DNA of 64,000 bases. It comes from an uncultured Clostridia bacterium. GTDB lineage: Bacteria; Bacillota; Clostridia; Christensenellales; UBA1242. Where the stretch lies: positions 331-64,330 of the forward strand of contig CALWKK010000001.1 of the NCBI GenBank assembly GCA_944381245.1, read 5' to 3'. Of this stretch, positions 7,695 to 62,024 are shown one piece after another. A program made the position numbers and the translations under genes. The notes below the pieces were generated by a model, which saw nothing but the letters and a program-made list of their open reading frames with translations, did no database searches and was not told the DNA's origin. The stretch's first letter is position 1; each line of letters starts with the position of its first letter.

Positions 7695-8672
7695 TTACAC
7701 CTGTAACGCTGTTATTGCCGAAACTATTATAATATCTCTAACGCAACAACCTCTTGACAAATCATTAATTGGTTTATTCAAATTTTGCAAAATTGGGCCT
7801 ATGGCATTATTGTTTCCAAAATATTGAATTGCTTTGTAACAAATATTGCCTGAATTTAAATCAGGAAATATTAAAACATTTGCATCTCCCTTTATTTTTA
7901 ATTTTGAATTTTTTGTTTTTGCAATTTCAGGACAAATAGCAGCATCTAATTGCATTTCACCATCTACTAAATAATTTGAATTTGCCATAATTGCCGTTGC
8001 AGTTTTTACTTTTTCTAAATTTTTACCTTCAGCAGAACCTTTTGTTGAATATGAGAGAAACGCAACTTTTGCTTTTTGATTAGAAAATTTTTCAAAACTA
8101 TTAGCCGTTTGTTTTGCTATTTGCGCCAAAGTTTCTGCGTTTGGCTCCACATTTAATCCCACATCAGCTCCAAAAATAACTTCTCTATTTCGAAAAATTT
8201 TATTTTTACCATAAAAAATCATAAAAGAAGAAACTATCTCGTCTTGCTTTTTTGCCTTAATGATTTGTAATGCTGGTCTTATAACTTTAGAAGATGGTGA
8301 TTCTGCTCCAGCGACCATTCCATCAGCTATTCCATATTCAACTAACATTGTTCCAAAATACAACGGATCCAATAATAAAGTTTCTGCTTCTTTTTTTGAC
8401 AATCCTTTATTTTTCCGTTTTTCTAAAAAACATTCTAATAATTTTTCATATATTCCAGATGTCTTAGGATTTATTATTGTTATTCCTTTTAATTTATCTT
8501 TATATCTTAAAACTAATGAGCTTTCATCTCCTAAAATAATTGCTTTGACTATTTTCTTCTTATTTAAATATTTCACAGCATTCATCGTTCTATCGCTAAA
8601 TGAAGCTTCAGGGAAAACTATAGTTACATATTTCTTTTTTGCTTTTTTTAAAATTGTTTTTTCATTAAACAT
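7695..8672 (-). CDS. pta: Phosphate acetyltransferase (short Pta type)
   Basis: IVFPEASF N-terminus and C-terminal NDLSRGCCVRDIIIVSAITALQ are typical of about 330-aa Pta. Phosphate butyryltransferase cannot be fully excluded. Confidence 0.8.
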   Translation of the reverse strand: MFNEKTILKKAKKKYVTIVFPEASFSDRTMNAVKYLNKKKIVKAIILGDESSLVLRYKDKLKGITIINPKTSGIYEKLLECFLEKRKNKGLSKKEAETLLLDPLYFGTMLVEYGIADGMVAGAESPSSKVIRPALQIIKAKKQDEIVSSFMIFYGKNKIFRNREVIFGADVGLNVEPNAETLAQIAKQTANSFEKFSNQKAKVAFLSYSTKGSAEGKNLEKVKTATAIMANSNYLVDGEMQLDAAICPEIAKTKNSKLKIKGDANVLIFPDLNSGNICYKAIQYFGNNNAIGPILQNLNKPINDLSRGCCVRDIIIVSAITALQV

Positions 8673-8724
8673 TTTTTACCTCGTAATTCATACATTTATT
8701 ATTTAAAGCGTAAAAATATTTTAA

Positions 8725-9765
8725 ATGAATAAAAAAAAATTGTCAATTAATATAATTAACAAAAAATTAAATATCCTAATAATTAAATTAAAAAATTTAA
8801 ATAAATCAAAATTTTTTTTGTTTTTATTTTCTTTAATTATTATATTTGCCCTAGTTGTTGAACCAAAAAAATATATGGAAGTTGCGCTAAACGGAATTTT
8901 AGTTTGGGCAACAAATATATTACCATCATTATTCCCATTTATGATTTTTACAAAACTTTTAACCTCAACTGGATATGTTGAATCAGCATCAAAAATATTT
9001 AATAAACCTATGAAAAAATATTATAATTGTCCAGGTATATCTTCATATATTTTTTTAATGAGCATTCTTTCGGGATATCCTTTGGGAGCAAAAATAACAG
9101 CAGATTTATACGAAAATGGTTCAATTAATAGAACTCAGGCACACAGAATAACAACTTTCACTTCAAATTCGGGGCCGATGTTTATTGTCGGAACAGTTGG
9201 TGTTGGAATGCTTATAAGTCCTTTTGCTGGATATATTATTTATATTTCTCATGTCTTTGCTTCTTTAATTAATGGATTACTATTTAAAAAATATAATACA
9301 ATAGAAATTATTAAAGATAATCTTAACTTGAAAAAAACTATAAATTCTAAAGATATATCTGAAAATATGATGAATGGAATAAGCTCTATTCTTCTAATAG
9401 GTGGATATATTACTATATTTTTTATAATCACTGAAGTGTTTTTTTCTCTTGGACTATTTATTCCATTTATCAAGTTATTAGAATTTTTAAATATTGATGG
9501 TGATTTAACGCAAGGATTTATTACTGGCATTTTTGAAATAACAAAAGGTTGTTTATTAATTTCAAACTCATCAGTTAGTTTAGCTGTTAAAACTAGTTTA
9601 TGTTGTATGATAATTTCTTTTGGTGGACTTGCGATTTCTTTTCAAGCTTTCGCATTTTTAAATAAATTTAAAATTTCAAAAAAGTTTTATTATTTACAAA
9701 AAATTTCCCATTCTATTATTTCATTAATTATTTGTTTAATATTATGTTCTTTGTTTTTTAATTAA
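8725..9765 (+). CDS. ylbJ: Sporulation integral membrane protein YlbJ (nucleoside-recognition-domain membrane protein)
   Basis: ILPSLFPFMIFTKLL, SGYPLGAK and SNSGPMFIVGTVG match the YlbJ family pattern. N-terminal K/N-rich extension makes the start uncertain. Confidence 0.7.
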   Translation: MNKKKLSINIINKKLNILIIKLKNLNKSKFFLFLFSLIIIFALVVEPKKYMEVALNGILVWATNILPSLFPFMIFTKLLTSTGYVESASKIFNKPMKKYYNCPGISSYIFLMSILSGYPLGAKITADLYENGSINRTQAHRITTFTSNSGPMFIVGTVGVGMLISPFAGYIIYISHVFASLINGLLFKKYNTIEIIKDNLNLKKTINSKDISENMMNGISSILLIGGYITIFFIITEVFFSLGLFIPFIKLLEFLNIDGDLTQGFITGIFEITKGCLLISNSSVSLAVKTSLCCMIISFGGLAISFQAFAFLNKFKISKKFYYLQKISHSIISLIICLILCSLFFN

Positions 9766-30458: not shown

Positions 30459-32255
30459 TTAATTTAGAATTGCTTTAATTCTTCTTACTCCCGATGAACT
30501 ACTTTCTTCTTTTGTAATTTTAAATATTCCTAATTCTTTAGTGTTATTTACATGTGGTCCTCCACATATTTCTTTACTCACGTTTCCTATCGTATACACC
30601 GTAACTTTGTCTCCATATTTATTTTCAAAAATTCCAACAGCACCGCTATTCTTTGCATCTTCTAATTTCATTTCTTCACACACAACATTTATCGAAGCTT
30701 TTATATTTTTGTTAACTTCATTTTCAATTTTTAAAATTTCTTCATCTGTCAATTTCCTATTGAAATTAAAATCAAATCTAAGTCTTTCAGCAGTTATATT
30801 AGAGCCACATTGGTGAATTGATTCATCATTCAAAACTTTTTTTAATGCAGAAAGTAATAAATGAGTTGCCGTGTGAAGTTTAGTTGTTTCAATATTTTTT
30901 TCTGCCAATCCACCTTTAAATGCTCCTGCGCTTGCAGTTCTACTTAATTCTTGATGATTTTCAAAAGCTTTTTTAAAACCATTTATATCAACTTCAAAAC
31001 CTTGTTCTTTAGCTAATTCACAAGTTAATTCAACAGGAAATCCAAAAGTATCAAATAATCTAAAAGCTTTTTGTCCAGCTATTGTTTTATTTTTAGGTGT
31101 ATATGTTTTTAAATTATTAATTAATTTTTCAAATTCTTTGATTCCTAGATCTAAAGTTTTTTGAAACTTGTTTATTTCATTAATAATTTCTTCTTCTATT
31201 AATTTTTGTTTTATTTTTAAATTAGGATAAGCTTCTTCATACACATTTACAAAATTATTGATTAAATCATATATCAATTTAATATTACCACCTAAATTTA
31301 TTATATATCTATATGCTCGTCTTAATAATCTTCTTAAAACATATCCAGCTCCAGTGTTGCTCGGTTTTATTCCTTTAACATCTCCAATTAACATTATTGA
31401 TGTTCTTATATGATCACATATTATTCTCATAGCCCTTTTGGTTTCTTCATCACTTTGATAACGTTTATTACAATTCTTTTCTATTGAGTTTATTGAATCA
31501 ATAAATAAATCAGTTAGATAACAATCTGTTATTCCATTTAAAAAAGCTAAATTTCTTTCGAATCCAAATCCCGTGTCTACATTCTTTTGTTTTAATTCTT
31601 TATAATTATTTTCATATTGAACATATTGCATATAGACATCATTACCAATTTCAACATATCTTCCACAACTACAATTTATGTCACATGTTTCACAACATTT
31701 TTTATCATGTTTAGGATAAAACCATTCATTATCAGGCCCACATGGTGTCCCACTTGTTCCCTCCAAATTCCACCAATTATCTTTCAAATAATATATATTT
31801 TCTTTTTTTATACCTTGTTCTTCTAATAACTTTCCTGTTTCAAGATCCCTTGGAATTTTTTCATTTCCTGCAAAAACTGTTGCGCAAATTTTATTTCCAT
31901 CTAATCCAAAAACATCTGTCAATAATTCATATGACCATTTAACTTTTTCTTTCTTAAAATAATCTCCTAAGCTCCAGTTTCCCATCATTTCAAAAAATGT
32001 TAAATGTGTTTCATCTCCGATATTATCAATATCAACAGTTCTAACACATCCTTGAACATTACACAATCTTTTCCCTTTTTCATGTTCCTTAATTCCTAAT
32101 AAATATGGCATTAGAGATTGCATACCTGCAACATTGAACATAACTCCTGTTTCACCATCACCTATCAAAGAAACAGCACCTATATCACAATGTCCTTTAC
32201 TTTTATAAAAATCTAACCATTTTTTCCTTAATTCATTACTACTTATTTTCACCAT
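30459..32255 (-). CDS. alaS: Alanine--tRNA ligase, short form (catalytic, tRNA-recognition and editing domains; no C-Ala domain)
   Basis: FFEMMGNWSLGDYFK, DTGFGFER, editing-site HTATHLL and CGGPHV. Ends at 598 aa right after the editing core. Confidence 0.85.
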   Translation of the reverse strand: MVKISSNELRKKWLDFYKSKGHCDIGAVSLIGDGETGVMFNVAGMQSLMPYLLGIKEHEKGKRLCNVQGCVRTVDIDNIGDETHLTFFEMMGNWSLGDYFKKEKVKWSYELLTDVFGLDGNKICATVFAGNEKIPRDLETGKLLEEQGIKKENIYYLKDNWWNLEGTSGTPCGPDNEWFYPKHDKKCCETCDINCSCGRYVEIGNDVYMQYVQYENNYKELKQKNVDTGFGFERNLAFLNGITDCYLTDLFIDSINSIEKNCNKRYQSDEETKRAMRIICDHIRTSIMLIGDVKGIKPSNTGAGYVLRRLLRRAYRYIINLGGNIKLIYDLINNFVNVYEEAYPNLKIKQKLIEEEIINEINKFQKTLDLGIKEFEKLINNLKTYTPKNKTIAGQKAFRLFDTFGFPVELTCELAKEQGFEVDINGFKKAFENHQELSRTASAGAFKGGLAEKNIETTKLHTATHLLLSALKKVLNDESIHQCGSNITAERLRFDFNFNRKLTDEEILKIENEVNKNIKASINVVCEEMKLEDAKNSGAVGIFENKYGDKVTVYTIGNVSKEICGGPHVNNTKELGIFKITKEESSSSGVRRIKAILN

Positions 32256-32268
32256 TGTACCCTCTTAT

Positions 32269-32979
32269 TTAATCTCTGTGTGCAAAAACCAATACAAATC
32301 TTAGTAAATTTAATATTGACATAACCAATGCAGCAACATAAGTCAATCCAGCTGCTCTTAAAACTTTTTTACAACCAACTAACTCATTAGAATCTAAAAT
32401 TTTTGTGTTTTCCAGTATAGCTAAAGCCCTGTTTGAAGCATTATATTCAACAGGCAATGTAACCAAATTTAACAAAACAGCAACTCCAAAAAATCCGATT
32501 CCACTCCATAAAAATATATCTCCAACAAGTCCATTAAACCATACAAAATTAAAAAGAAGTCCTATAATAACCATAGGCCAAAGTAGTGAGGAAACAATAT
32601 TTGAAAATTTAACAACACCGTTTCGAATTTTTGCTGGAAAATAATTTTTATTATGTTGCAAAGCATGCCCGACTTCATGCAATGCAATTCCTATTGCAGC
32701 TATTGAATTTGAATTTGCAACATCATTTGATAATGAAACTATATTTGTTGCTGGATTATAATTATCTGATAATTGACCATTTATTGTTTTTATTTTAACT
32801 TTTTCTAAACTTGCACCATCCAAAACTTTTCTAGCAGCATCAATTGCTATAATTTCACTTTTTGCTTTAACATTACTATATTGTCTATATGCAGACATAA
32901 CTTTTGATTGCGCAATAATTGCAAATATTATTCCTGGAATTAATATAACACCCATCAAAATATATTCCCAATATAACAT
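32269..32979 (-). CDS. YugP-like membrane zinc metallopeptidase (Zn_peptidase_2), paralog 1
   Basis: N-terminal TM, HEVGHALQH, and two C-terminal TM helices with E..AS.RA. Confidence 0.75.
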   Translation of the reverse strand: MLYWEYILMGVILIPGIIFAIIAQSKVMSAYRQYSNVKAKSEIIAIDAARKVLDGASLEKVKIKTINGQLSDNYNPATNIVSLSNDVANSNSIAAIGIALHEVGHALQHNKNYFPAKIRNGVVKFSNIVSSLLWPMVIIGLLFNFVWFNGLVGDIFLWSGIGFFGVAVLLNLVTLPVEYNASNRALAILENTKILDSNELVGCKKVLRAAGLTYVAALVMSILNLLRFVLVFAHRD

Positions 32980-32989
32980 TTAAATCTCC

Positions 32990-33700
32990 TTAAAATAATT
33001 TTGTTTTTTTTGTTAAAAAAGTCCACCACAAAATTGATCTTAAAAAATCTCCAACATAAGTTAACAATGCTACTTTTAATAAATCTTTAGCCATTTTTAA
33101 CTCATTATTATCCATAATATGATTATCTTTTAATAATTTTAAACCTTTTTTTGATGCATCTTTTTCAAGTGGTATTGTTATTAATTTTAATAACACTGAT
33201 AAAACAAAAATTAATATAGCAACTCCAATCAAAGATATTCCTATATAATATAAATTAGGTAGTATAAAAAACAAAAACAAACCAATTATTGCAAAAGGAA
33301 ACATAAAATAGCCTATAATCTTAACAAATTTTGTTAAAGATTTATTTAATTTGAATTTCTTAGAATTTTCTAAATCTTGTTTAGCATGACCGAATTCATG
33401 GGCAACAACTGTTAGAGCCGCCACAGAAGAATAATCACATGTTGCATCCGATAAAACAACCATTTTTGATCTAGAACTATAACCATCGTTTAAATAGCCT
33501 TTTGTTCTCCCAACATTTATTTTACTGGAAAAATGGTTGTTGGTTAAATATAACGCAAACTCTCCACCAGTCATTTTAATACTGCATGGTATTTTGTTGT
33601 ATTTTTCAAATGTTTCTTGAAGTTGAGCACTTGAATAAGTTGCAATTGCCAACGCAAACAACAATATTAAGACTATAACACCTATTATTATAAAAATCAC
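32990..33700 (-). CDS. YugP-like membrane zinc metallopeptidase (Zn_peptidase_2), paralog 2
   Basis: Same architecture and identical length (236 aa) to its neighbour. HEFGHAKQD. Confidence 0.7.
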   Translation of the reverse strand: MIFIIIGVIVLILLFALAIATYSSAQLQETFEKYNKIPCSIKMTGGEFALYLTNNHFSSKINVGRTKGYLNDGYSSRSKMVVLSDATCDYSSVAALTVVAHEFGHAKQDLENSKKFKLNKSLTKFVKIIGYFMFPFAIIGLFLFFILPNLYYIGISLIGVAILIFVLSVLLKLITIPLEKDASKKGLKLLKDNHIMDNNELKMAKDLLKVALLTYVGDFLRSILWWTFLTKKTKLF

Positions 33701-50969: not shown

Positions 50970-52223
50970 CTATTTTTTAACGATTATATTTTTTTCTTTA
51001 CCATTTTTTGACGGTATATAAAATCTTTGATCTTTTATTTCATCAGGTAAATATTGCTGTTTAACAAATCCACCAAAGTCATGTGGATATTTATACTCAA
51101 TTTTTTTTGTATCATTTAAAGATTTGTTATTTCTTAAATGATAAGGAACTTGGGCTTGCGAAAAATGGTCAACAGCTTTTTCAGCTTTACTCATCGCTAG
51201 ATATACTGAATTTGATTTTTCTGCTGTGCAAGCATATATTATTGCATGTGATAAAGGTAACATACCTTCTGGCAACCCAATATTTTTTAAAGAATATAAA
51301 GCACAGTTAGCAAGAAGCAGCGCATTACTATCTGCCATTCCTATATCTTCAGAACAATGAGCTATTAATCTTCTTGCTATTATCAAGGGATCACATCCAG
51401 CTTTTATTAATCTTTGGCAATAAAATAAAGCAGCATCAGGATCACTTCCTCTTATACTTTTACAAAAAGCACTTAAATTATCATAAAATTTACTCTCATC
51501 AAGCCATAATGTTTTTTTCTGTATACAATCTTCGGCAATTTCTTTAGTAATATTAACTATACCTAATTTATCTGGATTTGTAGTTAAAAATGCCATTTCT
51601 AACCCATTTAACGCACTTCTTAAATCTCCACCAGATATTTCAGCAAAATAATTTAATGCTTCATCTTTTATGTTGATATTATATTGTCCCAAGCCTTCAT
51701 TGCAAACCAATGCTCTTTTTAAAGCTTTTATTATTTGCTCTTTATCTAATGACTTAAATTCAAAAATCATACATCTAGATAATATAGCTGGAGTTAAACT
51801 AAAATATGGATTTTCGGTTGTTGTTCCAATTAATATTAATGTTCCATCTTCAATTGCTGGCAAAATACTATCACTTTGGGCTTTACTCCATCTGTGACAT
51901 TCATCTAATAACAAATATGTTTGTTTGGAAAACAAATTTCTTTCATTTCTTGCATCTTCTATTATTTTTTTTACATCACCGACACCACTTGAAACTGCAT
52001 TTAATTTTTTAAAAACACCATTCCCTTGATTTGCTATAATATTTGCCAAAGTAGTTTTTCCAGTTCCTGGAGGTCCAAAAAAAATAACACTACTTAACAT
52101 TCCTGTTTCAATTGCTCTTCTCAAAAATGAACCTTTTTTTGTTATATGTTCTTGTCCAACAAAATCTTCAAATGTTTTAGGTCTCAACCTTTCTGCTAGT
52201 GGCACTCTTTTATTTTCTATCAT
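50970..52223 (-). CDS. rarA: Replication-associated recombination protein A (RarA/MgsA AAA+ ATPase)
   Basis: PLAERLRPKTFEDFVGQEH, GPPGTGKTT, LLDECHRW, GATTENP-like TTTENPYF, YKYPHDF. Confidence 0.95.
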   Translation of the reverse strand: MIENKRVPLAERLRPKTFEDFVGQEHITKKGSFLRRAIETGMLSSVIFFGPPGTGKTTLANIIANQGNGVFKKLNAVSSGVGDVKKIIEDARNERNLFSKQTYLLLDECHRWSKAQSDSILPAIEDGTLILIGTTTENPYFSLTPAILSRCMIFEFKSLDKEQIIKALKRALVCNEGLGQYNINIKDEALNYFAEISGGDLRSALNGLEMAFLTTNPDKLGIVNITKEIAEDCIQKKTLWLDESKFYDNLSAFCKSIRGSDPDAALFYCQRLIKAGCDPLIIARRLIAHCSEDIGMADSNALLLANCALYSLKNIGLPEGMLPLSHAIIYACTAEKSNSVYLAMSKAEKAVDHFSQAQVPYHLRNNKSLNDTKKIEYKYPHDFGGFVKQQYLPDEIKDQRFYIPSKNGKEKNIIVKK

Positions 52224-52252
52224 ATTTTTATTATATCATACAAAAATAAAAA

Positions 52253-53683
52253 TTAATAACTTATCAAAGCATTTTTTTCAAGTATATCTAAATTTATCGT
52301 TGTCACATTTAATAATTGCATTCCACTAAAATTTGTTAGCTTTTCCTCTTGTTTTTTAATATAAAAATTTTTTTTACTATTTTTATAATATAATATCAAT
52401 TTATAATTAATACTTATTTTAGGAGAAAAACTTATTATATTTTTTTTAAACACAATTCCAAATAAATTTTCAACTAAATAAGAATATAAATCCTGATAAG
52501 ATTTAATCTTTGCAAAAATTTTATAATCTGAGGTTAAGATTTCAGATAGTTTTATTTTATTAAATATTATTTTTTCTTGTTTTAAAAAATTATATCTGTA
52601 AATTTCCTGCAAAATTGATTTTGGTAACTTATTATTAAAAAAATTGTTAAAATAATCATTTTTTATATAAATTTTTTTATCAAATAACTGCGAAATATTA
52701 ATTTTTTCTTTTATTAAATAATTTTTGTAATTTTCAAAATCATTTTTAGTCATAAAAAATGTATTTGTGTTTGCATTACATTTTAAAACAATTTTTATAA
52801 ACGGGATTCCTTTATTATTAATAGGAAATACATTTTTAATTTCCGAATTCGTGTAATAATTTAATGTTTTATTATCAGAAAATAATATTTTTAAATATTT
52901 TTTATTTCTTTCAATATTATAAAAATGTGATTTTAATTTTATATAAATATAAATAAATCCAGTTTTTTTTGAATTAAAACAATATGAAATACAATTATTT
53001 AAATTAATTTGAATATTTTCTGTGATAAACCTTCTACAGCTCACATCTTTTAAATTAGTGTAATAATCTTCCTCTATTAAATCTATTTTTTCGTTATAGG
53101 CACTGTTATAATTATAATTTAATTTGTTTAATTCTTGATATAAATTTAAATTAATATCTTGAATATAAATATTTTTAAAATTACTAATTTGCTTGTTTTT
53201 TTGATCTTCTAAAATAAGAATTGGTTCAAAATCAATATATTTTTTAATTTCTTCTATTGCAAAAATATATTTATCTAAATCTTTTTTTATTTTTTCATAA
53301 TTAAATATTAAAATTCTCTTATTGTTAAATAAACCAGCATTCTCTAATATTTTAAAATTTGGATAAAGATTAAATTGGACAACATTTGCATCTAATTTAC
53401 GATATAATTTATCTATTAATAATTTTTTCTTTAAAGAAATTTTATAATATTGTTTGTTATATAAATTTTTGAAATAAAAAGACTTACTTTGAATATTTTT
53501 TTTATTTTTTTTCAAATATAATATTTTAACTTTTTTTATTATAAATGTTTTTTTTTCTTTTTTTATTTCACAACAAACCTTTTTATTTTTCTTATAAAAA
53601 AAAATTATATCGTTTATTATTTTTTTTACAAAAACGAAAATAAACAAAGTTATTAATGTAAAAATCACAATTAAATTAATCAT
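52253..53683 (-). CDS. Hypothetical N-terminally anchored 476-aa protein, extreme K/N/I/Y/F composition
   Basis: Long uninterrupted ORF in an even more AT-rich stretch than its neighbours, with one N-terminal TM helix. No recognisable motif and no obvious SD. Confidence 0.5.
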   Translation of the reverse strand: MINLIVIFTLITLFIFVFVKKIINDIIFFYKKNKKVCCEIKKEKKTFIIKKVKILYLKKNKKNIQSKSFYFKNLYNKQYYKISLKKKLLIDKLYRKLDANVVQFNLYPNFKILENAGLFNNKRILIFNYEKIKKDLDKYIFAIEEIKKYIDFEPILILEDQKNKQISNFKNIYIQDINLNLYQELNKLNYNYNSAYNEKIDLIEEDYYTNLKDVSCRRFITENIQINLNNCISYCFNSKKTGFIYIYIKLKSHFYNIERNKKYLKILFSDNKTLNYYTNSEIKNVFPINNKGIPFIKIVLKCNANTNTFFMTKNDFENYKNYLIKEKINISQLFDKKIYIKNDYFNNFFNNKLPKSILQEIYRYNFLKQEKIIFNKIKLSEILTSDYKIFAKIKSYQDLYSYLVENLFGIVFKKNIISFSPKISINYKLILYYKNSKKNFYIKKQEEKLTNFSGMQLLNVTTINLDILEKNALISY

Positions 53684-53717
53684 ATAAAATGATTGACAAA
53701 AATATGTAATTTAAAAC

Positions 53718-53810
53718 TTATTCTTTATCTTTTTCATTTGTTTTATTTTTAACAAACGGCTTTAAAAATATTGAAATAAATTTTGGAACCTTAAAACAAA
53801 ATATTTTCAT
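53718..53810 (-). CDS. Candidate 30-aa micro-ORF (MKIFCFKVPKFISIFLKPFVKNKTNEKDKE)
   Basis: Below the track's size cutoff. ATG is preceded by AGAGGT at optimal spacing. It ends 34 nt upstream of the 476-aa gene on the same strand. Confidence 0.3.
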   Translation of the reverse strand: MKIFCFKVPKFISIFLKPFVKNKTNEKDKE

Positions 53811-53924
53811 CTGCAACCTCTATTATCATATGTTATGAAATTTTTAAAAAATTTGTTACGAACTATTTTTCCTGTTTTTTTATACAATGAAATAGCAATT
53901 AAATTGCTAAAATGAGAGTGATAT

Positions 53925-54770
53925 ATGAAAGACCAAAGAAAAGAAATATTGAAATTTGAAAATGTGTGTTTAACTTATCATACTAAAGATGACGAAATAC
54001 TTGCTTTAAAAGATGTTAATTTTTCAGTTTATGAAAAAGAGTTTATAGCTATCGTTGGTCCGAGTGGATGTGGCAAAACAACATTATTAAGCTTAATTTC
54101 TGGAATACTTAAGCCTAGTTCTGGAAAAATCATTTTTGATGGAAAAAATATAAATGATTCAAAAAAAATAAATAAAAAAAATAAAGAACTAAATACTGAA
54201 ATTGGTTATATGTTTCAAAGAGATCATCTCTTCGATTGGAGAACAATTTGGAAAAATGTAATTATTGGATTAGAGATTCAAGGTAAAAAAAATGATAAAG
54301 AAATTATATCTAAGTTAAATAATTTATTAAATAAATATGGTCTTGAATCTTTTAAAAACAAAAAACCAACTCAACTTTCAGGTGGAATGAGACAAAGAGT
54401 TGCCTTAATTAGAACACTGGCTTTAAATCCTAAATTATTATTACTTGACGAGCCTTTTTCTGCCTTAGATTTTCAAACAAGACTTAGTGTTTGTGACAGT
54501 GTTTCAGAAATAATAAAAAATGAACAGAAAACAGCTATTTTAGTTACTCACGATATTGCCGAAGCTGTCAGTATGGCAGATCGAATTATTATTCTTTCTA
54601 ATAGACCAGGTTATGTAAAAAAAATTATAAGTGTTGATTTACAACATTTAGGCCCTCCAATAAAAAGACGAGAAAGTGAAAAAGCAAGAATTTTATTTGA
54701 TGAAATTTGGAAGGATCTTATTCAATATAATAACGAAAATCCTTTAAATACAATTGGAGATGATAAATGA
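53925..54770 (+). CDS. ABC transporter ATP-binding protein (NitT/TauT-type)
   Basis: GPSGCGKTT, LSGGMRQRVALIRTL, LLLLDEPFSALD, VTHD. Confidence 0.9.
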   Translation: MKDQRKEILKFENVCLTYHTKDDEILALKDVNFSVYEKEFIAIVGPSGCGKTTLLSLISGILKPSSGKIIFDGKNINDSKKINKKNKELNTEIGYMFQRDHLFDWRTIWKNVIIGLEIQGKKNDKEIISKLNNLLNKYGLESFKNKKPTQLSGGMRQRVALIRTLALNPKLLLLDEPFSALDFQTRLSVCDSVSEIIKNEQKTAILVTHDIAEAVSMADRIIILSNRPGYVKKIISVDLQHLGPPIKRRESEKARILFDEIWKDLIQYNNENPLNTIGDDK

Positions 54771-55612
54771 AAAATAAAATTCAAAATCTATTTACTAAAT
54801 TTTTTAAGAAAAAAAATAAAAATTTAAATTATTCCAAAGAACATAAAATATATGTAAAAAAAATTACTGTAGAAAAATGGACTATAAGATTAATTCAAGT
54901 TTTTATTTTAATTTCAATTTTTGTGCTTTGGGAATTACTAACTATGTATAATGTTTTAGATGCTTTCTTTATAAGTTCGCCTTCCAGAATGATTAACACA
55001 GTTGTTAGTTTATATGAATCTGGAGAATTATTTTTGCATATCGGAACAACTCTTTATGAAACTATAGTCGGATTTTTATTAGCAACTTTTATTGGATATT
55101 TAATTGCTGTAATTTTATGGTGGAATGAAAAACTTAGAAAAATATTTGATCCTTATATTGTTGTCTTAAATAGCTTACCAAAAATAGCTTTAGGGCCCCT
55201 TATCATTATTTGGTTTGGAGCTGGAACTAGCGCTATTATTGTAATGTGTATATTAATTTGCGTTATAATAACAACTTTGAGCATTTTGGGATCGTTTTTA
55301 TCTTGCGATAAAGATAAAATTCTTTTAATGAAATCTATGAATGCAAAAAAATATCAAATATTTTTCAAATTAATAGTTCCACATTCAATGCCTGATTTTA
55401 TTTCAGTTTTAAAAATAAATGTTGGCATGAGTTGGGTTGGAACTATTATGGGCGAATATTTAGTTAGTAAAGCAGGTCTAGGTTATTTAATAGTTTACGG
55501 TGGAACTGTGTTTAAATTAGATTTAGTTATGACTAGCACGGTTATTCTCTGTTTGCTTGCTGGCGGAATGTACTTTATTGTTAGCAGAATTGAAGCCAGA
55601 TTTAAAAGATAA
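54767..55612 (+). CDS. ABC transporter permease (NitT/TauT-type, BPD_transp_1)
   Basis: Six TM helices. ATGA-coupled to the ATPase gene. Confidence 0.85.
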   Translation: MKNKIQNLFTKFFKKKNKNLNYSKEHKIYVKKITVEKWTIRLIQVFILISIFVLWELLTMYNVLDAFFISSPSRMINTVVSLYESGELFLHIGTTLYETIVGFLLATFIGYLIAVILWWNEKLRKIFDPYIVVLNSLPKIALGPLIIIWFGAGTSAIIVMCILICVIITTLSILGSFLSCDKDKILLMKSMNAKKYQIFFKLIVPHSMPDFISVLKINVGMSWVGTIMGEYLVSKAGLGYLIVYGGTVFKLDLVMTSTVILCLLAGGMYFIVSRIEARFKR

Positions 55613-56686
55613 ATTTTGATAGTACATCATGATTAATCCTAATCCTCCTATTAAAGGATAAGTATACTTAATAATTTTATCAAAACCAAGCAAACTTATT
55701 GAGTAAAAAATTAAGATAGATAAAATAATAGGAAGAATTTTTGTCTTTCTATTATTTTCTTTGTTTTTTATTCTGTTATAAACTTGCACAAAAGAATATT
55801 GCGTTGATATGAGTGTTGTTATTATACTAAACAAAATAATCAATGAAAACATAATTCCAACTGGATAACTTATTAAAAAAGATAGATATACTAGTGGCAT
55901 ATCAATATAAATTATCATACGATCATTGGCTAATATTGATATTATAATTAAAAAAATTAAAATAATTAATATAAATGAAGAAACCAATGCTGTCAATTTT
56001 ATATATTTTTTATTAATTTTAAATCCTGTGTCAAATAAAACTTTGTTTGATGTTGCTAAATTACAACAAACATAACTTATAGTGCTAAAAAAAAGCATTA
56101 TTAAATTGTTAAAATCAGTTGAAAAAGCTGGTGGCGATAATGTTGAAATAGTAAAACCCTTTAAGCAAATATATATAATTCCTAATAATATACAAGGGAC
56201 TATTATAAAATTAAAGTTAGATAAAGATTTAATACCAAGAAAAACCATTAAGCTTGAGAAAGTTACTATTAATACACTCCATATAGGGAAATTCACACCA
56301 AACAAACTTTGGTTTAATAAATTGTTTATTCCAGCAATCATTGATGAGCCAATAATTGAAAATATTATTAATGATATTATATTAAATATTAAAAAAATTT
56401 TACTTTTTCTAATAAAATCCAAATTATATTTATATTTTCCAAAGTTTAAAAAAGTTTTTATTCCAAAATAAAATAATATAAAAATAGGTATTAAAAATAC
56501 TAAACTAATAAAACCATATTGTGCAAAAAAAACAACAATTTCCTGTCCTGATGCTAGTCCAACACCAACAATTGTTCCAACAATTAACATTGAATATTTA
56601 AAAATTTCGTAAAACTTTTTCACAATATAATTTATTAATAAATTTTTAACTATATACTTAAATAATTTTTGAAAATAAATACACAC
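55523..56686 (-). CDS. YkvI-family membrane transporter-like protein
   Basis: IVGTIVGVGLASGQEIVVFF N-terminal signature and about 11 TM helices. Track start at 56686 is GTG; GTG 56623 or ATG 56590 are more plausible starts. Confidence 0.65.
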   Translation of the reverse strand: MCIYFQKLFKYIVKNLLINYIVKKFYEIFKYSMLIVGTIVGVGLASGQEIVVFFAQYGFISLVFLIPIFILFYFGIKTFLNFGKYKYNLDFIRKSKIFLIFNIISLIIFSIIGSSMIAGINNLLNQSLFGVNFPIWSVLIVTFSSLMVFLGIKSLSNFNFIIVPCILLGIIYICLKGFTISTLSPPAFSTDFNNLIMLFFSTISYVCCNLATSNKVLFDTGFKINKKYIKLTALVSSFILIILIFLIIISILANDRMIIYIDMPLVYLSFLISYPVGIMFSLIILFSIITTLISTQYSFVQVYNRIKNKENNRKTKILPIILSILIFYSISLLGFDKIIKYTYPLIGGLGLIMMYYQNLSFKSGFNSANNKVHSASKQTENNRASHN

Positions 56687-56693
56687 TATTGTT

Positions 56694-57332
56694 ATGAGTT
56701 CAAAAATAATTTATTATGTCGTTTTAGTTTTTATATTTGCAGGGCTTTTTGTTTGTATTATTCCTGTTCCATTTTATAACGTAGGATACGATAGTTTAAG
56801 CGAAGAAGAAAAAAAGTTATATAATGATGCATATGAAATTGAAAACAATCCCTACAAAGATGTTCAAGATTATAATGAAGTTATAAACTCAATAGGGAAT
56901 GTAGTTAATTTAGATTGGTTTGATGTTGTTAATAATTTTTTCACAAAATATACTCTAACTGCTAAGGTTATTGATGTAAATACAAAAAAATCTTATTATG
57001 TCAAACGTGTTGGAGGATATAACCATGCCGATGTTCAACCAATTGATGCCGAAAATACGGCTATAATGAAAAGTCTTTACAACGGTGAGTGGAGTTGGAC
57101 AAGAAGACCTGTTTGGGTTGAAATAAATGGAACTTATATTGCTGGTTCTATTAACGGAATGCCTCATGGCTATACACTAATTGAAGGAAATAATATGGAT
57201 GGTCATACCTGCATACATTTTCTTAATAGTATGACCCATGGCACAAAAAGAGTTGATGAGGCGCATCAAAATGCTATTGCCACTGCTTATGAAAGAAGAA
57301 ACGAATTGAAATCATTATTATTAAATAATTAA
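56694..57332 (+). CDS. Membrane-anchored extracytoplasmic protein, possible divergent YkuD-like (L,D-transpeptidase-fold) domain
   Basis: N-terminal TM. The core NGMPHG-x11-GHTCIHF resembles the HG...(S/T)xGC(I/V)R YkuD signature; the call is tentative. Confidence 0.3.
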   Translation: MSSKIIYYVVLVFIFAGLFVCIIPVPFYNVGYDSLSEEEKKLYNDAYEIENNPYKDVQDYNEVINSIGNVVNLDWFDVVNNFFTKYTLTAKVIDVNTKKSYYVKRVGGYNHADVQPIDAENTAIMKSLYNGEWSWTRRPVWVEINGTYIAGSINGMPHGYTLIEGNNMDGHTCIHFLNSMTHGTKRVDEAHQNAIATAYERRNELKSLLLNN

Positions 57333-58330
57333 TTATAAATATCAATAATTGTTTTTAAGTTCTTATTTTCTATAATTTTTCCTGCTGCTAAAATAGGAAT
57401 AATTTCGCTGTCCTCAAAAACATTAATTTTCATTTTTAAAATTTTATTTAAATGATTTGAAAATCCTTTTAAACTTGTTATTTCCCCAAAAACATATATT
57501 CCATTTTCAACAATTTCATTAACCATTTCTGGTTCGCACATATTAATGGTCGTTTGAATAGCTGGTAATATGGTATTTAAATAATTTTGTATAACAAAAT
57601 ATATTTCCATACTTGAAATTTCTATATTTTTATTCTCTCTATTATTTTTGTCAAAAATTTCTATTTTTGCTTTTCTTTCGTCTCCGTCTATAAAAGTTAT
57701 TAACTTTTTTCTAATATCTTTTACTTTATCAATATTTATATTAATTTTATGCTTCTTTTTTATATAATTTTGAATATCTGTATCCATCAAGTTTGTTCCA
57801 ACATTAAGATGTCCACCTTTTATTACAAAATTATCTTTTACGCAAGCAATGTCTGTTGTTTCTTCTCCTAAATAAACTATTAATAAATTTTTTTTCAACT
57901 TTATCTTTTCATTGATGTATTTTTCAAAAAATACAACTCTTGGTATACATTTATATTTTTTTATCCCACTTTTTTTTGCAAGTTTTTTTAAATTAGCTAA
58001 AAATTGTTTTGAATTTCCACAATTAGTAATAAATAATGCATTTGGCTTTAATGTTAATCTTTTATTCTTTACTTTCCCTAAAAAAGTCTTTAACATTATT
58101 GTTGAATACTCCAAATTTTTTACATCACCACCTAATATTGGATTGAATATATGACTATTACTAGAATTAATTTTTTCATAATTTATATCAGATCCAACAC
58201 TATTTAAATAATATTGATCATCAACTTTACTTATACATATTAAATTTGGCTCTTTTAAAACAATTCCTTCTTTATTTTTATAAATAATCGTATTCCCATC
58301 AAATAAATCAATAATTAAATCAATTTTCAT
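57329..58330 (-). CDS. MreB-homologous actin-fold protein with degenerate nucleotide-binding loops
   Basis: Collinear with MreB over the full length (GIVLKEPNLICI; IFNPILGGDVKNLEYSTIMLKTF; NVGTNLMDTDIQNYIKKKHKINI). Phosphate-1 is DLFDGNT (vs DLGTANT), phosphate-2 is YLGEETTD (vs DIGGGTTE) and the adenosine loop is VFGEIT (vs LTGGGA). Confidence 0.7.
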   Translation of the reverse strand: MKIDLIIDLFDGNTIIYKNKEGIVLKEPNLICISKVDDQYYLNSVGSDINYEKINSSNSHIFNPILGGDVKNLEYSTIMLKTFLGKVKNKRLTLKPNALFITNCGNSKQFLANLKKLAKKSGIKKYKCIPRVVFFEKYINEKIKLKKNLLIVYLGEETTDIACVKDNFVIKGGHLNVGTNLMDTDIQNYIKKKHKININIDKVKDIRKKLITFIDGDERKAKIEIFDKNNRENKNIEISSMEIYFVIQNYLNTILPAIQTTINMCEPEMVNEIVENGIYVFGEITSLKGFSNHLNKILKMKINVFEDSEIIPILAAGKIIENKNLKTIIDIYN

Positions 58331-58332
58331 TT

Positions 58333-59517
58333 TTAGAAATTAATTGTTAATTCAACAATTTTTCCTCCTCTATTTATTTTATAAACAGCATTTTGTGCAT
58401 ACAATAATTTCATTCTGGCATATAAGAACGTGTTTGAATCCCAAATTTCATATTCTTCTGTTCCATCTAATGTTTCTAATTCAACACCTATTATAATATC
58501 GCCTGCTTGTAAACCATTTATTAAACATTCTTCATTAACAGAAACAACATAAAATCCTTCTTCATTAAATCCAATAGGATTTGTTGAAACAGAATCAATC
58601 GCACTGTCTATACCTGATACTCCGAGCATTGCTTCACTTGTCGTTTCTCCATTTGTTAAATAATTTTCAACAACAATATCAATCATAATAATTGCAGGAT
58701 AAATTGAAACTGCAAAAAACAAAGAATTTGCATCATCATCTCCTAATGTATTTAATCCGATAACATAACCATCCATATCTATTAATGCGCCACCACTATT
58801 CCCATGATTAATAGCTGCATCGTGCTGGATTAAATGCTCATATAAATTTCCATCTGAAATTGCTTCTCTTAAAATTGTGGAAGATATAGTTCCTGTTGTT
58901 GCTGAAGCATGATATGACTTTTGATTTCCAACAGTAATAACAGGTTCTAATAATGATATTTTATCTACTTCAGAACAATATACGCTTCTATCTTTTAACT
59001 TTGCTGCTGGTAAATCAGCAAATTGCTCACAAACTATTATTGCCATATCAACTTTATTATTGCTCCATAAAATTTTTGCAGGATAAGTTGTCTTTCCTCC
59101 GTCTTGACTTACATAACATTTATAATATGTTTTTGTAATTGTTGTCATTGTTGTTTCTGTTACAACATCTGTCAAAACATCGCTTATAACATGGTAATTA
59201 GTTAAAATAAAACCACCTGAATGAACAATAAATCCACTTCCATAACTTGTTAATGTTTCACTAACATTTGTATTTCCAGATCTAATTGTTTCAACAACTC
59301 GATTAATACAAATTGTAAAAGATATATTTATATATTTTTCAGCAATCTGACTTGCTGTTAAATTCTCTGTTATATCTATTTCTTCGTTTTCTGTATACTT
59401 AGATGCATCATAAATAATTTTGTTATCATTATCTATGAATGTGTAAGGATTTGTGCAAGATGAAAAAGTAAAAATACAACATACTATTAATATTAGCAAA
59501 CTAATTGTTTTTTTCAT
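58333..59517 (-). CDS. Trypsin-like serine protease (S1C, HtrA/DegP-like) with C-terminal PDZ-like domain; probable lipoprotein
   Basis: Signal peptide ending FSSC. Catalytic His (ILTNYHVI), Asp (VDMAIIV) and Ser (GNSGGALID). GLQAGDIIIGVE PDZ motif. Confidence 0.85.
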   Translation of the reverse strand: MKKTISLLILIVCCIFTFSSCTNPYTFIDNDNKIIYDASKYTENEEIDITENLTASQIAEKYINISFTICINRVVETIRSGNTNVSETLTSYGSGFIVHSGGFILTNYHVISDVLTDVVTETTMTTITKTYYKCYVSQDGGKTTYPAKILWSNNKVDMAIIVCEQFADLPAAKLKDRSVYCSEVDKISLLEPVITVGNQKSYHASATTGTISSTILREAISDGNLYEHLIQHDAAINHGNSGGALIDMDGYVIGLNTLGDDDANSLFFAVSIYPAIIMIDIVVENYLTNGETTSEAMLGVSGIDSAIDSVSTNPIGFNEEGFYVVSVNEECLINGLQAGDIIIGVELETLDGTEEYEIWDSNTFLYARMKLLYAQNAVYKINRGGKIVELTINF

Positions 59518-61031
59518 TAAATTACCTCAATAAATTTTGTAAAAACTTTTTTGAAGCTTTTATTAACTTTCATTGCTTCTTTTATTTCAAAATCTGCATC
59601 TTTATTAACAATAGTTTTAACAATAATTGAATCCCCTAAAATATCACATGACAAATCATCAACTGCTCCACTTTTACTTGCATCTAACGCAGAAGCTAAC
59701 TTAATCAAAACACCAACTTTTTTGACAGCATCAGCGTCTTCTTCCGAAACAATTGATGAATATTTTATCCAATCTGATAAATTAAAGTTATCTAAATCTT
59801 GCAATATACAAGAAAAAGATGCTAATAAAATATCTTTTTGAGAAACTCCGTAAATTTTTGAATTTAGTACAACATCGAAACAATTTCTTATAAAGTTATC
59901 GTAATTTATTCTTTTTCCACAATCATATAAATATCCTGCTATTCTCAATGGTTTTATATAATTTCTTGGTAATTTATGAATAACTTTTAATTGTTTGAAA
60001 ACATTTATACTAAGCTCATAAACTTTTGAGTTATTTGAGTTAATATTTGAGAAAAATGCATTTATATTTTCCAAACTGTATACAAACATTTCACTTAAAG
60101 GTTTATTGCAAATTTCAGGAACAACAGTTGTACTAATATATCCTTCCAGCATAGTTTCAGAACTTATAGTAACGTGATTTATTTTTAAATTTTCAATAAA
60201 CATTTTAGCTAATATTGTTCCAGCAAATATTTTATCAACACTTTCAGAGCTAATCCCCTTTATTTTTTTTGTTTTATCAACGCCAACATTTTCTATCAAA
60301 GAAAAAACTTTATTAAAAGCATCTGATGTTAAAACATAATTATTTTCTAAATTTAATGGATATTTAGTTACAAGACGGGCAATTTTCCCTAAAGCCAACA
60401 TTGTTTGACCACTTGTTAAAACTTCAGTTTCTTCATCAATTAAATCTATAAAATTAATATCGTTAAAATATGATGTAAAAACTTCTCTAATTTCAGCAAT
60501 CTTTGATTCAATGCTTTCATTTTCTTCCAAAATTTTTAAAGCATTATTAATTCCAAAAGGTATAATGTTATAATTAAGAATATTTCTTCTGTTATATTGA
60601 ATAAAGTAACATGAAGTTTCTCCAACATAAAAATAATAACCCTTTTGAACGCTGCTTGAATTAACAGCTCCAATAAAAGTGTTTTTTAATTCATCTTCTT
60701 GAGATAATATATTTAATGAAAATCCACAAGTATTATAAATTTCTTCAGTTATGCTTTTAATGTTTTTTGCATTATTTAGTGAACTTTTTGAAATCATAAA
60801 AACATCAGTAATAGAAGCATTATCACATATGCGTCTATACATTTTTAATATTTTCATTAATTGCTTGATAAGTACAGGCCTTATAATCCCATGTTCTTCT
60901 ATATCATTTATTAAGAGAACATTATCAGAAAAAACATCAATAATGTTATAATATAAATTATTTTTTGTCTCCAATAATGTTAAAGTAATTTCATTATTAT
61001 TTATATATATTATCGCTTTTTTATTCAACAT
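59517..61031 (-). CDS. Ppx/GppA-family plus HD-domain homolog with degenerate catalytic motifs
   Basis: Collinear with about 500-aa Ppx/GppA-HD proteins (ILSQEDELKNTFIGAV; IIPFGINNAL). DxGSNS is YINNNE, DIGGGS is YVGETS, and the HD-domain LHDIG/HHKHS positions read LYDCG/FIRNC. Confidence 0.6.
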   Translation of the reverse strand: MLNKKAIIYINNNEITLTLLETKNNLYYNIIDVFSDNVLLINDIEEHGIIRPVLIKQLMKILKMYRRICDNASITDVFMISKSSLNNAKNIKSITEEIYNTCGFSLNILSQEDELKNTFIGAVNSSSVQKGYYFYVGETSCYFIQYNRRNILNYNIIPFGINNALKILEENESIESKIAEIREVFTSYFNDINFIDLIDEETEVLTSGQTMLALGKIARLVTKYPLNLENNYVLTSDAFNKVFSLIENVGVDKTKKIKGISSESVDKIFAGTILAKMFIENLKINHVTISSETMLEGYISTTVVPEICNKPLSEMFVYSLENINAFFSNINSNNSKVYELSINVFKQLKVIHKLPRNYIKPLRIAGYLYDCGKRINYDNFIRNCFDVVLNSKIYGVSQKDILLASFSCILQDLDNFNLSDWIKYSSIVSEEDADAVKKVGVLIKLASALDASKSGAVDDLSCDILGDSIIVKTIVNKDADFEIKEAMKVNKSFKKVFTKFIEVI

Positions 61032-61042
61032 AATTCCCCTAT

Positions 61043-61213
61043 TTATTCTTTAATTTCTATTGCATTAACTGGACACATACTTTCACAAGAATGACATTTA
61101 ATACATTTTTCATAATTAATTTCAGCTTTCCCATCTTTTCCCCAAGATATAGCATTAACAGGACAAATATTTATACAAGTCCCACAAGCAATACATTTGT
61201 TTTTATTAACCAT
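61043..61213 (-). CDS. 2x[4Fe-4S] ferredoxin, 56 aa
   Basis: Below the track's size cutoff. Manual translation is MVNKNKCIACGTCINICPVNAISWGKDGKAEINYEKCIKCHSCESMCPVNAIEIKE, with two CxxCxxCxxxCP motifs. GAGGAA RBS lies 6 nt upstream. Confidence 0.85.
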   Translation of the reverse strand: MVNKNKCIACGTCINICPVNAISWGKDGKAEINYEKCIKCHSCESMCPVNAIEIKE

Positions 61214-61219
61214 AAAAAT

Positions 61220-61239
61220 TTCCTCACTTTCTTGAGGAA
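61220..61239 (-). promoter_or_regulatory. 5'-UTR hairpin that pairs the ferredoxin Shine-Dalgarno sequence
   Basis: ttcctca-ctttct-tgaggaa: 7-bp stem and 6-nt loop. On the mRNA the 3' arm UGAGGAA is the RBS and is followed by AUUUUUAUG. Confidence 0.35.
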
Positions 61240-61282: not shown

Positions 61283-61651
61283 TTAATTTTTTTGTGTAAA
61301 TAAACAGCAAATTTCATAAACTGCAATTAAAATTAGATAAGACCCGAATAACATTTTTAAAACATTGCTATCAATTAAGTTTGCCAAAAAAGCAAATCCA
61401 ATAGAAGCACAAATTCCAGGAATAACAATCCAAAAAATTCCTTTCATTTCCACCATATGATTTTTAAAATGAATTATCAAAGCAATTAAAGCCATGGGTA
61501 AAAAAGCTAATAAATTAATGCCTTGAGCCACTTTTTGCTCTATAGATAAAAAAATTGTCAACAAAGGGATCAGCAAAGTTCCTCCTCCCATACCCATTCC
61601 ACCAACAATTCCTCCAATTATACCAAATAAAATAAGTAAAAAAATTTGCAT
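61283..61651 (-). CDS. TauE/SafE (DUF81) family half-size 4-TM protein, downstream half
   Basis: GIVGGMGMGGGTLLIPLL signature and 4 TM helices. Has its own AGGGG RBS and ATG. Confidence 0.75.
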   Translation of the reverse strand: MQIFLLILFGIIGGIVGGMGMGGGTLLIPLLTIFLSIEQKVAQGINLLAFLPMALIALIIHFKNHMVEMKGIFWIVIPGICASIGFAFLANLIDSNVLKMLFGSYLILIAVYEICCLFTQKN

Positions 61652-61661
61652 AGTAACCCCT

Positions 61662-62024
61662 TTAAATTAACATTTTAATTCCGGCAGCTAAAACAATGAC
61701 AGTAAAAATAATTCTAACTATTTTTGCATTTAGTTTTTGTAACAAGAAAGCACCAATTATTCCACCTAAAACAAAACCAGATCCAACAAAGCCAAACAAC
61801 TGCCAATCTATAGAAATTTTAAAAAGATAAACTATTAAAGAAAATATAGCAATAGGGAACATAACTGCTAAAGCAGTTGAATGAGATTTTTTATTGTCAA
61901 TTTTTAAAATTTTTTCTAAAAGCGGAACACAAATCATTCCTCCTCCCCCACCAAAAAATCCATTAGCGAAGCCTATTAATAATCCACTTAAAATTAAAAT
62001 AATTTTGCTTTTAATTTTTTTCAT
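61662..62024 (-). CDS. TauE/SafE (DUF81) family half-size 4-TM protein, upstream half
   Basis: GFANGFFGGGGGMICVPLL signature and 4 TM helices. Clean TAA stop 10 nt before the next ATG. Confidence 0.75.
   Translation of the reverse strand: MKKIKSKIILILSGLLIGFANGFFGGGGGMICVPLLEKILKIDNKKSHSTALAVMFPIAIFSLIVYLFKISIDWQLFGFVGSGFVLGGIIGAFLLQKLNAKIVRIIFTVIVLAAGIKMLI

Follow-up and report, generated by a model that had tools for sequence, protein, structure and literature searches.

A probable eroding mreB locus with degenerate MreB-like and Ppx/GppA-like proteins in a genome-reduced, Christensenellales-type gut bacterium

MreB is normally a strictly nucleotide-dependent polymer, and its gene in Bacillus subtilis lies in a neighborhood that we take to read folC ... 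maf-radC-mreB-mreC-mreD-minC-minD-spoIVFA-spoIVFB-rplU-ysxB-rpmA. TsaB (YeaZ) is a catalytically dead ASKHA paralogue of TsaD, ancient and universal, with a defined partner. An E...T-X-[D/E] motif is found in 95.8% of MreBs outside Spiroplasma, and Spiroplasma MreB3, a natural exception that lacks the motif, polymerizes with very slow release of inorganic phosphate (Pi) (PMC9597168). Our literature search returned no paper linking Ppx/GppA with MreB or describing MreB in Christensenellales. Here we describe a four-gene cluster on the minus strand of a 64,000-nucleotide (nt) stretch of DNA (the window) from an uncultured Clostridia bacterium (GTDB lineage Christensenellales; UBA1242; assembly GCA_944381245.1, contig CALWKK010000001.1, positions 331 to 64,330), encoding a ferredoxin, a Ppx/GppA-like protein (PpxL), an HtrA-type protease, and an MreB-like protein (MreBL). 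We consider it fairly likely that this cluster is the remodelled and eroding mreB locus of a genome-reduced Christensenellales-type gut bacterium. On that reading, it holds two enzymes caught turning into non-enzymes, with folds kept and reading frames open, and not a new four-part machine. In window numbering, and from upstream to downstream, the genes are as follows.

61043-61213, minus strand: fdx, a clostridial-type 2x[4Fe-4S] ferredoxin of 56 amino acids (aa) (Fer4, 66.7 bits)
59517-61031, minus strand: PpxL, a Ppx/GppA fold of four domains, phosphate loops degenerate and C-terminal half conserved, 504 aa (Pfam, 65.5 bits)
58333-59517, minus strand: HtrA/DegP-type serine protease and predicted lipoprotein, triad intact and PDZ-like C terminus divergent, 394 aa (Trypsin_2, 81.1 bits)
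57329-58330, minus strand: MreBL, an actin fold with the phosphate-1 (P1), phosphate-2 (P2), and adenosine loops and the catalytic Glu replaced, 333 aa (MreB_Mbl, 134.5 bits)

The positions and junctions of these four open reading frames (ORFs) are exactly those given in an earlier note on this DNA: fdx and ppxL are 11 nt apart, ppxL and htrA overlap in TAATG (spacer of -1), and 2 nt separate htrA from mreBL. Profile hidden Markov model (HMM) searches likewise agreed with the family assignments of that note (bit scores as listed, with two Fer4 motifs in fdx), and AlphaFold2 (AF2) models compared by Foldseek gave MreB-like and PPX-like folds.

All three nucleotide loops of MreBL depart from the canonical sequences. 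Motif replacements in both MreBL and PpxL were read from family alignments and from HMMER alignments against solved structures, in which the replaced positions have high posterior probabilities. In MreBL, the P1 loop DLGTANT has become DLFDGNT, the P2 loop DIGGGTTE has become YLGEETTD, and the adenosine loop TGGGALL has become FGEITSL, which bears out the earlier note's statement that DLFDGNT, YLGEETTD, and VFGEIT stand in place of MreB loops. The catalytic Glu (E140 in the DEP of Caulobacter crescentus MreB) is an Arg, and the E...T-X-[D/E] catalytic motif is absent, T-T-D being its sole remainder. The missing ligands do not recur at shifted positions; an alignment of MreBL with its relative in L005 (L-numbers denote relatives' species loci), which is 39% identical, contains only 4 indel columns, none of them in a loop. 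The AF2 model (predicted local distance difference test [pLDDT] score, 85.3) predicts a complete four-subdomain actin fold, with Foldseek template modeling (TM) scores of 0.81 to 0.84 to models of B. subtilis Mbl and MreB and to C. crescentus MreB. MreBL also passed the Pfam model PF06723 (gathering score, 27) and scored 123.2 bits with NCBIfam NF010539, under the cut-off of 293.

Within the MreBL family, two levels of change were seen. None of 67 family sequences has Glu in the E140 column, and most family proteins retain the Gly loops; the family in general probably still binds nucleotide. Among the 67, the window protein alone has Phe in place of the P1 Gly, Glu-Glu in place of P2 glycines, and Glu in place of the adenosine-loop Gly, four positions that are Gly in 55 to 58 of the 67 relatives. 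NF010539 scores fall in a gradient from L039 (291.8) through L078 (225.6), family member P0209 (190.3), and L005 (185.9) to the window (123.2). For both MreBL and PpxL, the window copy has the lowest NCBIfam score among the members tested, and the top relatives lie just below the cut-offs.

MreBL alone is fast-evolving, and in the window lineage alone. Mean identity to outgroups is 26.6% for the window MreBL versus 35.4 to 38.6% for sister lineages; the corresponding values are 42.2% versus 41.7 to 44.1% for PpxL and 34.6% versus 32.5 to 35.9% for HtrA, neither of which is accelerated. Close relatives of MreBL share 44 to 92% identity among themselves and 27 to 39% with the window copy, whose best full-length match among 1.84 billion representatives is 28 to 30% identical. 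Against the nearest available relative, at 39% identity, synonymous sites are saturated. A word-index homology search with the window MreBL was empty, which we do not read as absence of the protein, since the 90%-identity cluster that contains the full-length MreBL has as its representative a 137-aa fragment encoded on a 1,065-bp contig. The window protein keeps 26 of 41 family-conserved columns, the family minimum (family median, 0.925). Losses affect 7 of 11 conserved residues in the nucleotide pocket versus 8 of 30 outside it (Fisher P = 0.064, with windows set post hoc), an excess that is suggestive only. Neutral drift of the L005 gene was simulated up to the divergence observed; not one of 300 runs ended with an open frame, and 11 to 17 stops accumulated on average. 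Because no neutral run stayed open, mreBL is not drifting freely; its reading frame is maintained by selection.

PpxL shows a comparable replacement of its phosphate loops, with DIGSNS read as YINNNE (P1) and DIGGGSTE as YVGETSCY (P2), so the Ppx-like loops YINNNE and YVGETS of the earlier note also hold in the structure-based and family alignments. The Glu-rich catalytic-base segment is kept (QEDELK; E112/E114). Foldseek aligned the AF2 model (pLDDT, 88.4) with Helicobacter pylori PPX/GppA (6pc1) over 491 columns and all four domains (TM score, 0.80). The Pfam model PF02541 was passed (gathering score, 27), domain III scored 20.1 bits, below 27.3, and the exopolyphosphatase model TIGR03706 scored 99.2 bits, under its cut-off of 307, at the end of a gradient running from L084 (289.1) and L078 (285.5) through L039 (178.2). 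The P2 Glu, whose H. pylori counterpart is the residue changed in the E143A structure, is absent from all 83 family members. Even in Christensenellaceae-type PpxL, with its near-canonical motifs (DLGSN(S/T)ARL, AVAT.AVRRAKN, EEEA, and GVGGS), P2 reads EIGGGSTK versus D.GGGS(T/L)E in the Aquifex, Zymomonas, and H. pylori enzymes, and the remaining phosphate loops decay stepwise toward the window clade and reduced genomes. The earlier note had also counted the loss of metal-binding His residues in the HD domain as a sign of degeneracy, an argument that carries little weight, as the first His is also missing from H. pylori PPX/GppA, an active enzyme. The mean frequency of the top residue is 0.65 in domain III and 0.68 in domain IV versus 0.52 in domains I and II. 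Full-length relatives number in the hundreds, at 35 to 72% identity, in metagenome-assembled genomes (MAGs) labelled Clostridia, Firmicutes, or Christensenellales. PpxL is probably an old, order-wide, non-catalytic protein of the Ppx/GppA fold, with its function in the C-terminal half.

Scanning one genome for each GTDB species turned up the PpxL family in at least 534 genomes, and the best 80 loci were searched by tblastn with the window proteins; counts use only loci with enough flank (65 for MreBL and HtrA, 74 for fdx and TauE). Titles of these 80 genomes were mostly Christensenellales, Christensenellaceae, Christensenella sp., Clostridia bacterium, or Firmicutes bacterium, with a few other family labels. 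The order tauE-tauE-fdx-ppxL-[htrA]-mreBL recurs: MreBL is present in 60 of 65 loci and HtrA in 27 of 65, fdx lies upstream of ppxL in 65 of 74, and a TauE pair lies upstream of fdx in 64 of 74, with fdx and TauE missing in the most distant members. Gene order is thus conserved across relatives, and the adjacency that the earlier note had left open as possibly fortuitous is not chance. A fixed four-part module does not stand, given the patchy HtrA, the variable fdx and TauE, the separation of ppxL from mreBL in L084, and the deletion of mreBL in two lineages that keep PpxL.

Flanking genes in relatives bear on what MreBL is. L086 reads ppxL-mreBL-minD-minE-M23-M50-DUF4132 ... rplU-prp-rpmA, and L084 reads folC-folP-folBK-ppxL-DZR-maf-mreBL ... 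lepA ... hemN. Of the genes downstream of mreBL, minD is seen in 49 loci, that for an M50 peptidase in 28, and the rplU-prp-rpmA run in 7. Because these flanks match the B. subtilis mreB neighborhood as we assume it to be, MreBL is most plausibly a positional orthologue of mreB, placed at the ancestral locus. The extra MreB paralogue envisaged in the earlier note therefore fits poorly, its gene sitting at the mreB position, among maf/folC, min, M50, and rplU flanks, in relatives. No mreC or mreD, and likewise no minC or radC, was seen at the locus in relatives with annotated neighbors. The window clade retains none of minD, minE, and the M50 gene at the locus, and the window locus itself has no maf, folC, min, M50, or rplU flanks, with lepA-hemN kept nearby, as in L084. 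Second MreB-like matches downstream in L011 and L045 were set aside: they fall among ORFs of ~340, 182 to 218, and 600 to 608 aa, which by ORF size alone resemble an hrcA-grpE-dnaK-like run, matching what we presume to be the B. subtilis order lepA-hemN-hrcA-grpE-dnaK. In L084, a Christensenellaceae-type locus, a gene at 7984-9435, whose 483-aa product starts with a double zinc ribbon domain, lies together with maf between ppxL and mreBL, in the slot that htrA takes in other clades.

In related lineages, MreBL is dispensable. It is missing at this locus in a clade of five (L031, L033, L034, L035, and L036) and in L054, both of which retain PpxL, and no MreB-like sequence was detectable in the flanks of these loci. 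In the five-locus clade, ppxL is immediately followed by ABC transporter genes and a homologue of the 387-aa ORF at 55523-56686 of the window, both of which lie beyond mreBL in the window; in L054, ppxL is followed by rplU-prp-rpmA-yqfD. Since these MreBL-less lineages keep the conserved C-terminal motifs of PpxL, the function of PpxL does not need an adjacent MreBL.

Together, these observations fit a history in which the four genes would be the remnant of an ancestral Firmicutes cell-shape and division locus, with ppxL upstream of mreB throughout Christensenellales and an HtrA-type lipoprotein protease gene between them in part of the order. The MreBL family would be a hydrolysis-deficient MreB. 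Loss of locus partners (MreC and MreD, and in the window clade also MinD, MinE, and the M50 peptidase) may have relaxed selection on MreBL, and the window lineage would then have given up nucleotide binding. MreBL might survive there under weak constraint, either as a structural protein that is in low demand and works without nucleotide or as a relic awaiting deletion, and PpxL might use its C-terminal half for binding or scaffolding, without catalysis. The window encodes a class A penicillin-binding protein (PBP), an S11 carboxypeptidase, a MurJ/SpoVB-like flippase, and the sporulation protein YtfJ, and no MreC, MreD, RodA, or PBP2 family match was found among the window ORFs scanned. Family UBA1242 has been described as having genomes of <1 Mb and sporulation genes, with RodA, MreB, and MrdA credited to other reduced gut lineages only and not to this family (PMC12306168); the fit of the window organism with that description is suggestive only.

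Several points weigh against an eroding locus. An mreBL gene that is under selection and has a confidently predicted fold could have acquired a specific function that is new and not residual. Canonical mreB, mreC, mreD, rodA, pbp2, or ppk genes may lie elsewhere in the genome, beyond the window. A genuine partnership in function could underlie the tight ppxL-mreBL adjacency, which is conserved in 60 of 65 loci. In addition, the B. subtilis gene order behind the locus identity is one that we have presumed, and the loss of nucleotide binding by the window MreBL is inferred from residues in an alignment.

Such a partnership is the core of a doubtful alternative, in which the PpxL and MreBL pseudo-enzymes pair up in the cytoplasm as a scaffold or regulator and are expressed along with the exported HtrA, and perhaps also with ferredoxin and TauE. 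A dedicated module of this kind would have a Christensenellales-specific role in the envelope, in division, or in sporulation, for example checkpoint control by a PDZ protease beside a SpoIVFB-like M50 peptidase. Its appeal lies in a ppxL-mreBL adjacency that persists from 72% down to 35% PpxL identity, in gene junctions that overlap or span 2 nt, in the confident folds of both proteins together with the selected mreBL frame, and in an htrA gene that precedes both minD and the M50 peptidase gene at L013, L017, L024, L027, and L032. However, HtrA is absent in 38 of 65 loci, two lineages keep PpxL with no MreBL beside it, the pair is interrupted in L084 by maf and a zinc-ribbon gene, and the rates of PpxL and MreBL are uncoupled in the window lineage; operon structure inherited at the mreB locus explains the adjacency equally well. 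We also regard as unlikely a bolder version, an undescribed Christensenellales pair of a hydrolysis-deficient MreB and a dead Ppx/GppA-fold protein acting together at the old mreB locus, with the window MreBL as the first nucleotide-free bacterial actin-fold protein, co-translated with an exported HtrA. PpxL in such a pair might be a polyphosphate or (p)ppGpp sensor that gates a slow, MreB3-like filament in division or sporulation.

It is very unlikely that MreBL is a functionless pseudogene in the making, drifting neutrally with a frame not yet interrupted. Its strong acceleration, the smallest complement of family-conserved residues of any member, the three lost nucleotide loops, the lack of a Shine-Dalgarno sequence, and the deletion of mreBL in related lineages would all suit such a fate, but the neutral simulations, the mere 4 indel columns against a 39%-identical relative, and the complete actin fold predicted by AF2 do not. 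Finally, removal of GGN Gly codons by AT pressure, with loop changes of no functional meaning, is extremely unlikely despite the low GC content of the window (~25%) and the low Gly content of MreBL (5.1%, versus 6.0 to 10.1% in orthologues) and PpxL (3.6%), as PpxL and HtrA are not accelerated in the window lineage, L001 at 27% GC keeps GG in all three MreB loops, the replacements are Phe or Glu where most relatives have Gly, and, as the earlier note had argued, Gly loops are intact elsewhere in the same window (HslU GPTGVGKT at residue 65, RarA GPPGTGKT at residue 50, and two GGG runs in Pgk; TsaD and PGK also had strong Pfam scores).

Returning to the locus itself, four further features adjoin the cluster.

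61662-62024, minus strand: TauE/SafE (TSUP) half-transporter, C-terminal half of the model (PF01925, 82.5 bits, model positions 123-237)
61283-61651, minus strand: TauE/SafE half-transporter, N-terminal half of the model (PF01925, 62.6 bits, model positions 1-106)
61220-61239, minus strand: terminator-like stem-loop of 7 pairs between tauE and fdx (sequence scan and reading)
56694-57332, plus strand: convergent 212-aa gene, function unassigned by profiles, outside the conserved block

Tight coupling and zero internal terminator-like sites support the co-expression of the four genes proposed in the earlier note; the only such site in our scan was the hairpin upstream of fdx. Transcription of the cluster would start upstream of fdx. 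Shine-Dalgarno-like sequences precede fdx (GAGGA), ppxL (AGGGGA), and htrA (GAGGT), and none was found ahead of mreBL in members of the window clade (58331-58370 of the window; corresponding segments of L004 to L007 and L049), versus AGGAG 6 to 9 nt upstream of the mreBL start codon in other clades. Because no Shine-Dalgarno sequence precedes it, mreBL translation may depend on coupling to htrA. A GAGGAGG conserved in the window clade lies inside htrA, 35 to 40 nt upstream of mreBL. The promoter scan was uninformative (40 sites versus 45 ± 6.4 in shuffles), and the Rfam scan returned two tRNAs and nothing else. The stem-loop (TTCCTCAAGAAAGTGAGGAA, followed by a T-run) includes the fdx Shine-Dalgarno GAGGA in its 3′ arm, and it could mark the end of the tauE transcript or act as a gate on fdx translation. 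The two tauE halves lie 10 nt apart, the second of them 69 nt before fdx; their order is reversed, with the C-terminal-half gene first and the N-terminal-half gene second.

The protease triad motifs of HtrA (TNYHVIS, VDMAII, and GNSGGAL) are present, with H, D, and S invariant in 34 of 34 orthologues, and a lipobox (FSSC) is present. An NCBIfam HtrA model aligned end to end (positions 3-357 of 357; 123 bits). The earlier note's description of a PDZ-protease lipoprotein is thus sound as to protease and lipoprotein; as to PDZ, no Pfam PDZ domain was found at an E value of ≤0.1, yet residues 84 to 392 align to the PDZ-bearing Mycobacterium tuberculosis HtrA1 chain. Ferredoxin carries two CxxCxxCxxxCP motifs, CIACGTCINICP and CIKCHSCESMCP, and scored 54.7 with NCBIfam FdxA_fam, under the cut-off of 65. 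A magnetosome-like reading of the neighborhood (MamK, MamE, and MamO/TauE) was rejected because NCBIfam scores were far under the cut-offs (MamE, 71 versus 800; MamO, 47 versus 800; MamK, 25 versus 400) and indicate domain-level homology only. The stop codon of the convergent gene overlaps that of MreBL by 4 nt, and the gene was found in only three related loci (L001, L007, and L029). The earlier note had suggested a YkuD-like wall enzyme here, which found no backing: there was no YkuD match in Pfam (E ≤ 10) or NCBIfam (E ≤ 0.1), no significant match to another family, and nothing relevant in a sequence search of the PDB. The protein has an N-terminal hydrophobic segment, and its GHTCIHF loosely recalls the YkuD motif SxGCIR, without that profile or PDB support.

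Elsewhere in the window, the minus strand carries a 476-aa ORF without a Pfam match (52253-53683) in the most AT-rich stretch (17.6% GC, 52001-54000), two tandem Zn_peptidase_2 paralogues (putative neutral zinc metallopeptidases; 236 aa each, 32269-33700), and an alanyl-tRNA synthetase ORF of 598 aa (30459-32255) that ends right after the tRNA_SAD domain, which looks short for the bacterial enzyme.

The wider interest of the locus lies in a graded MreB series within one gut order, from near-canonical through catalytic-Glu-less to all Gly loops replaced, which could reveal which MreB functions survive without ATP. The PpxL family, probably inactive and with conserved C-terminal domains, points to a non-enzymatic role for the Ppx/GppA fold. 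In reconstructions from reduced Christensenellales MAGs, MreBL and PpxL are unfit to infer "rod shape" or "polyphosphate degradation."

Among known systems, Spiroplasma MreB3 (7e1c/7e1g; TM score, 0.80 to 0.83) resembles MreBL in missing the catalytic Glu, as does the whole MreBL family. However, MreB3 binds AMPPNP and keeps the Gly-rich loops whose glycines have become F, E, E, and E in the window MreBL, and it is one of five paralogues in the motility system of a wall-less host, whereas MreBL sits at the ancestral locus of a host with peptidoglycan enzymes. PpxL shares with the PPX/GppA enzymes of H. pylori (6pc0/6pc1) and Aquifex aeolicus (1t6c) the same four-domain fold, collinear over its full length, and the Glu-rich catalytic-base segment. 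It differs from Ppx/GppA phosphatases in the replaced P1 DIGSNS and P2 DxGGGS(T/L)E, in the absence of the P2 Glu from all 83 family members, even those with EIGGGSTK, and in having its C-terminal domains as the most conserved part. TsaB offers a parallel for an ASKHA fold kept after its nucleotide chemistry was lost, presumably for binding; the erosion of MreBL and PpxL, in contrast, appears recent, is graded along one order, and comes without a demonstrated partner. The B. subtilis mreB locus, in the order presumed above, is matched by relatives with maf/folC upstream and minD, minE, M23, M50, and rplU-prp-rpmA downstream, but Christensenellales-type loci differ from it in the Ppx/GppA-like gene upstream of mreBL and in the htrA gene inserted in part of the order.

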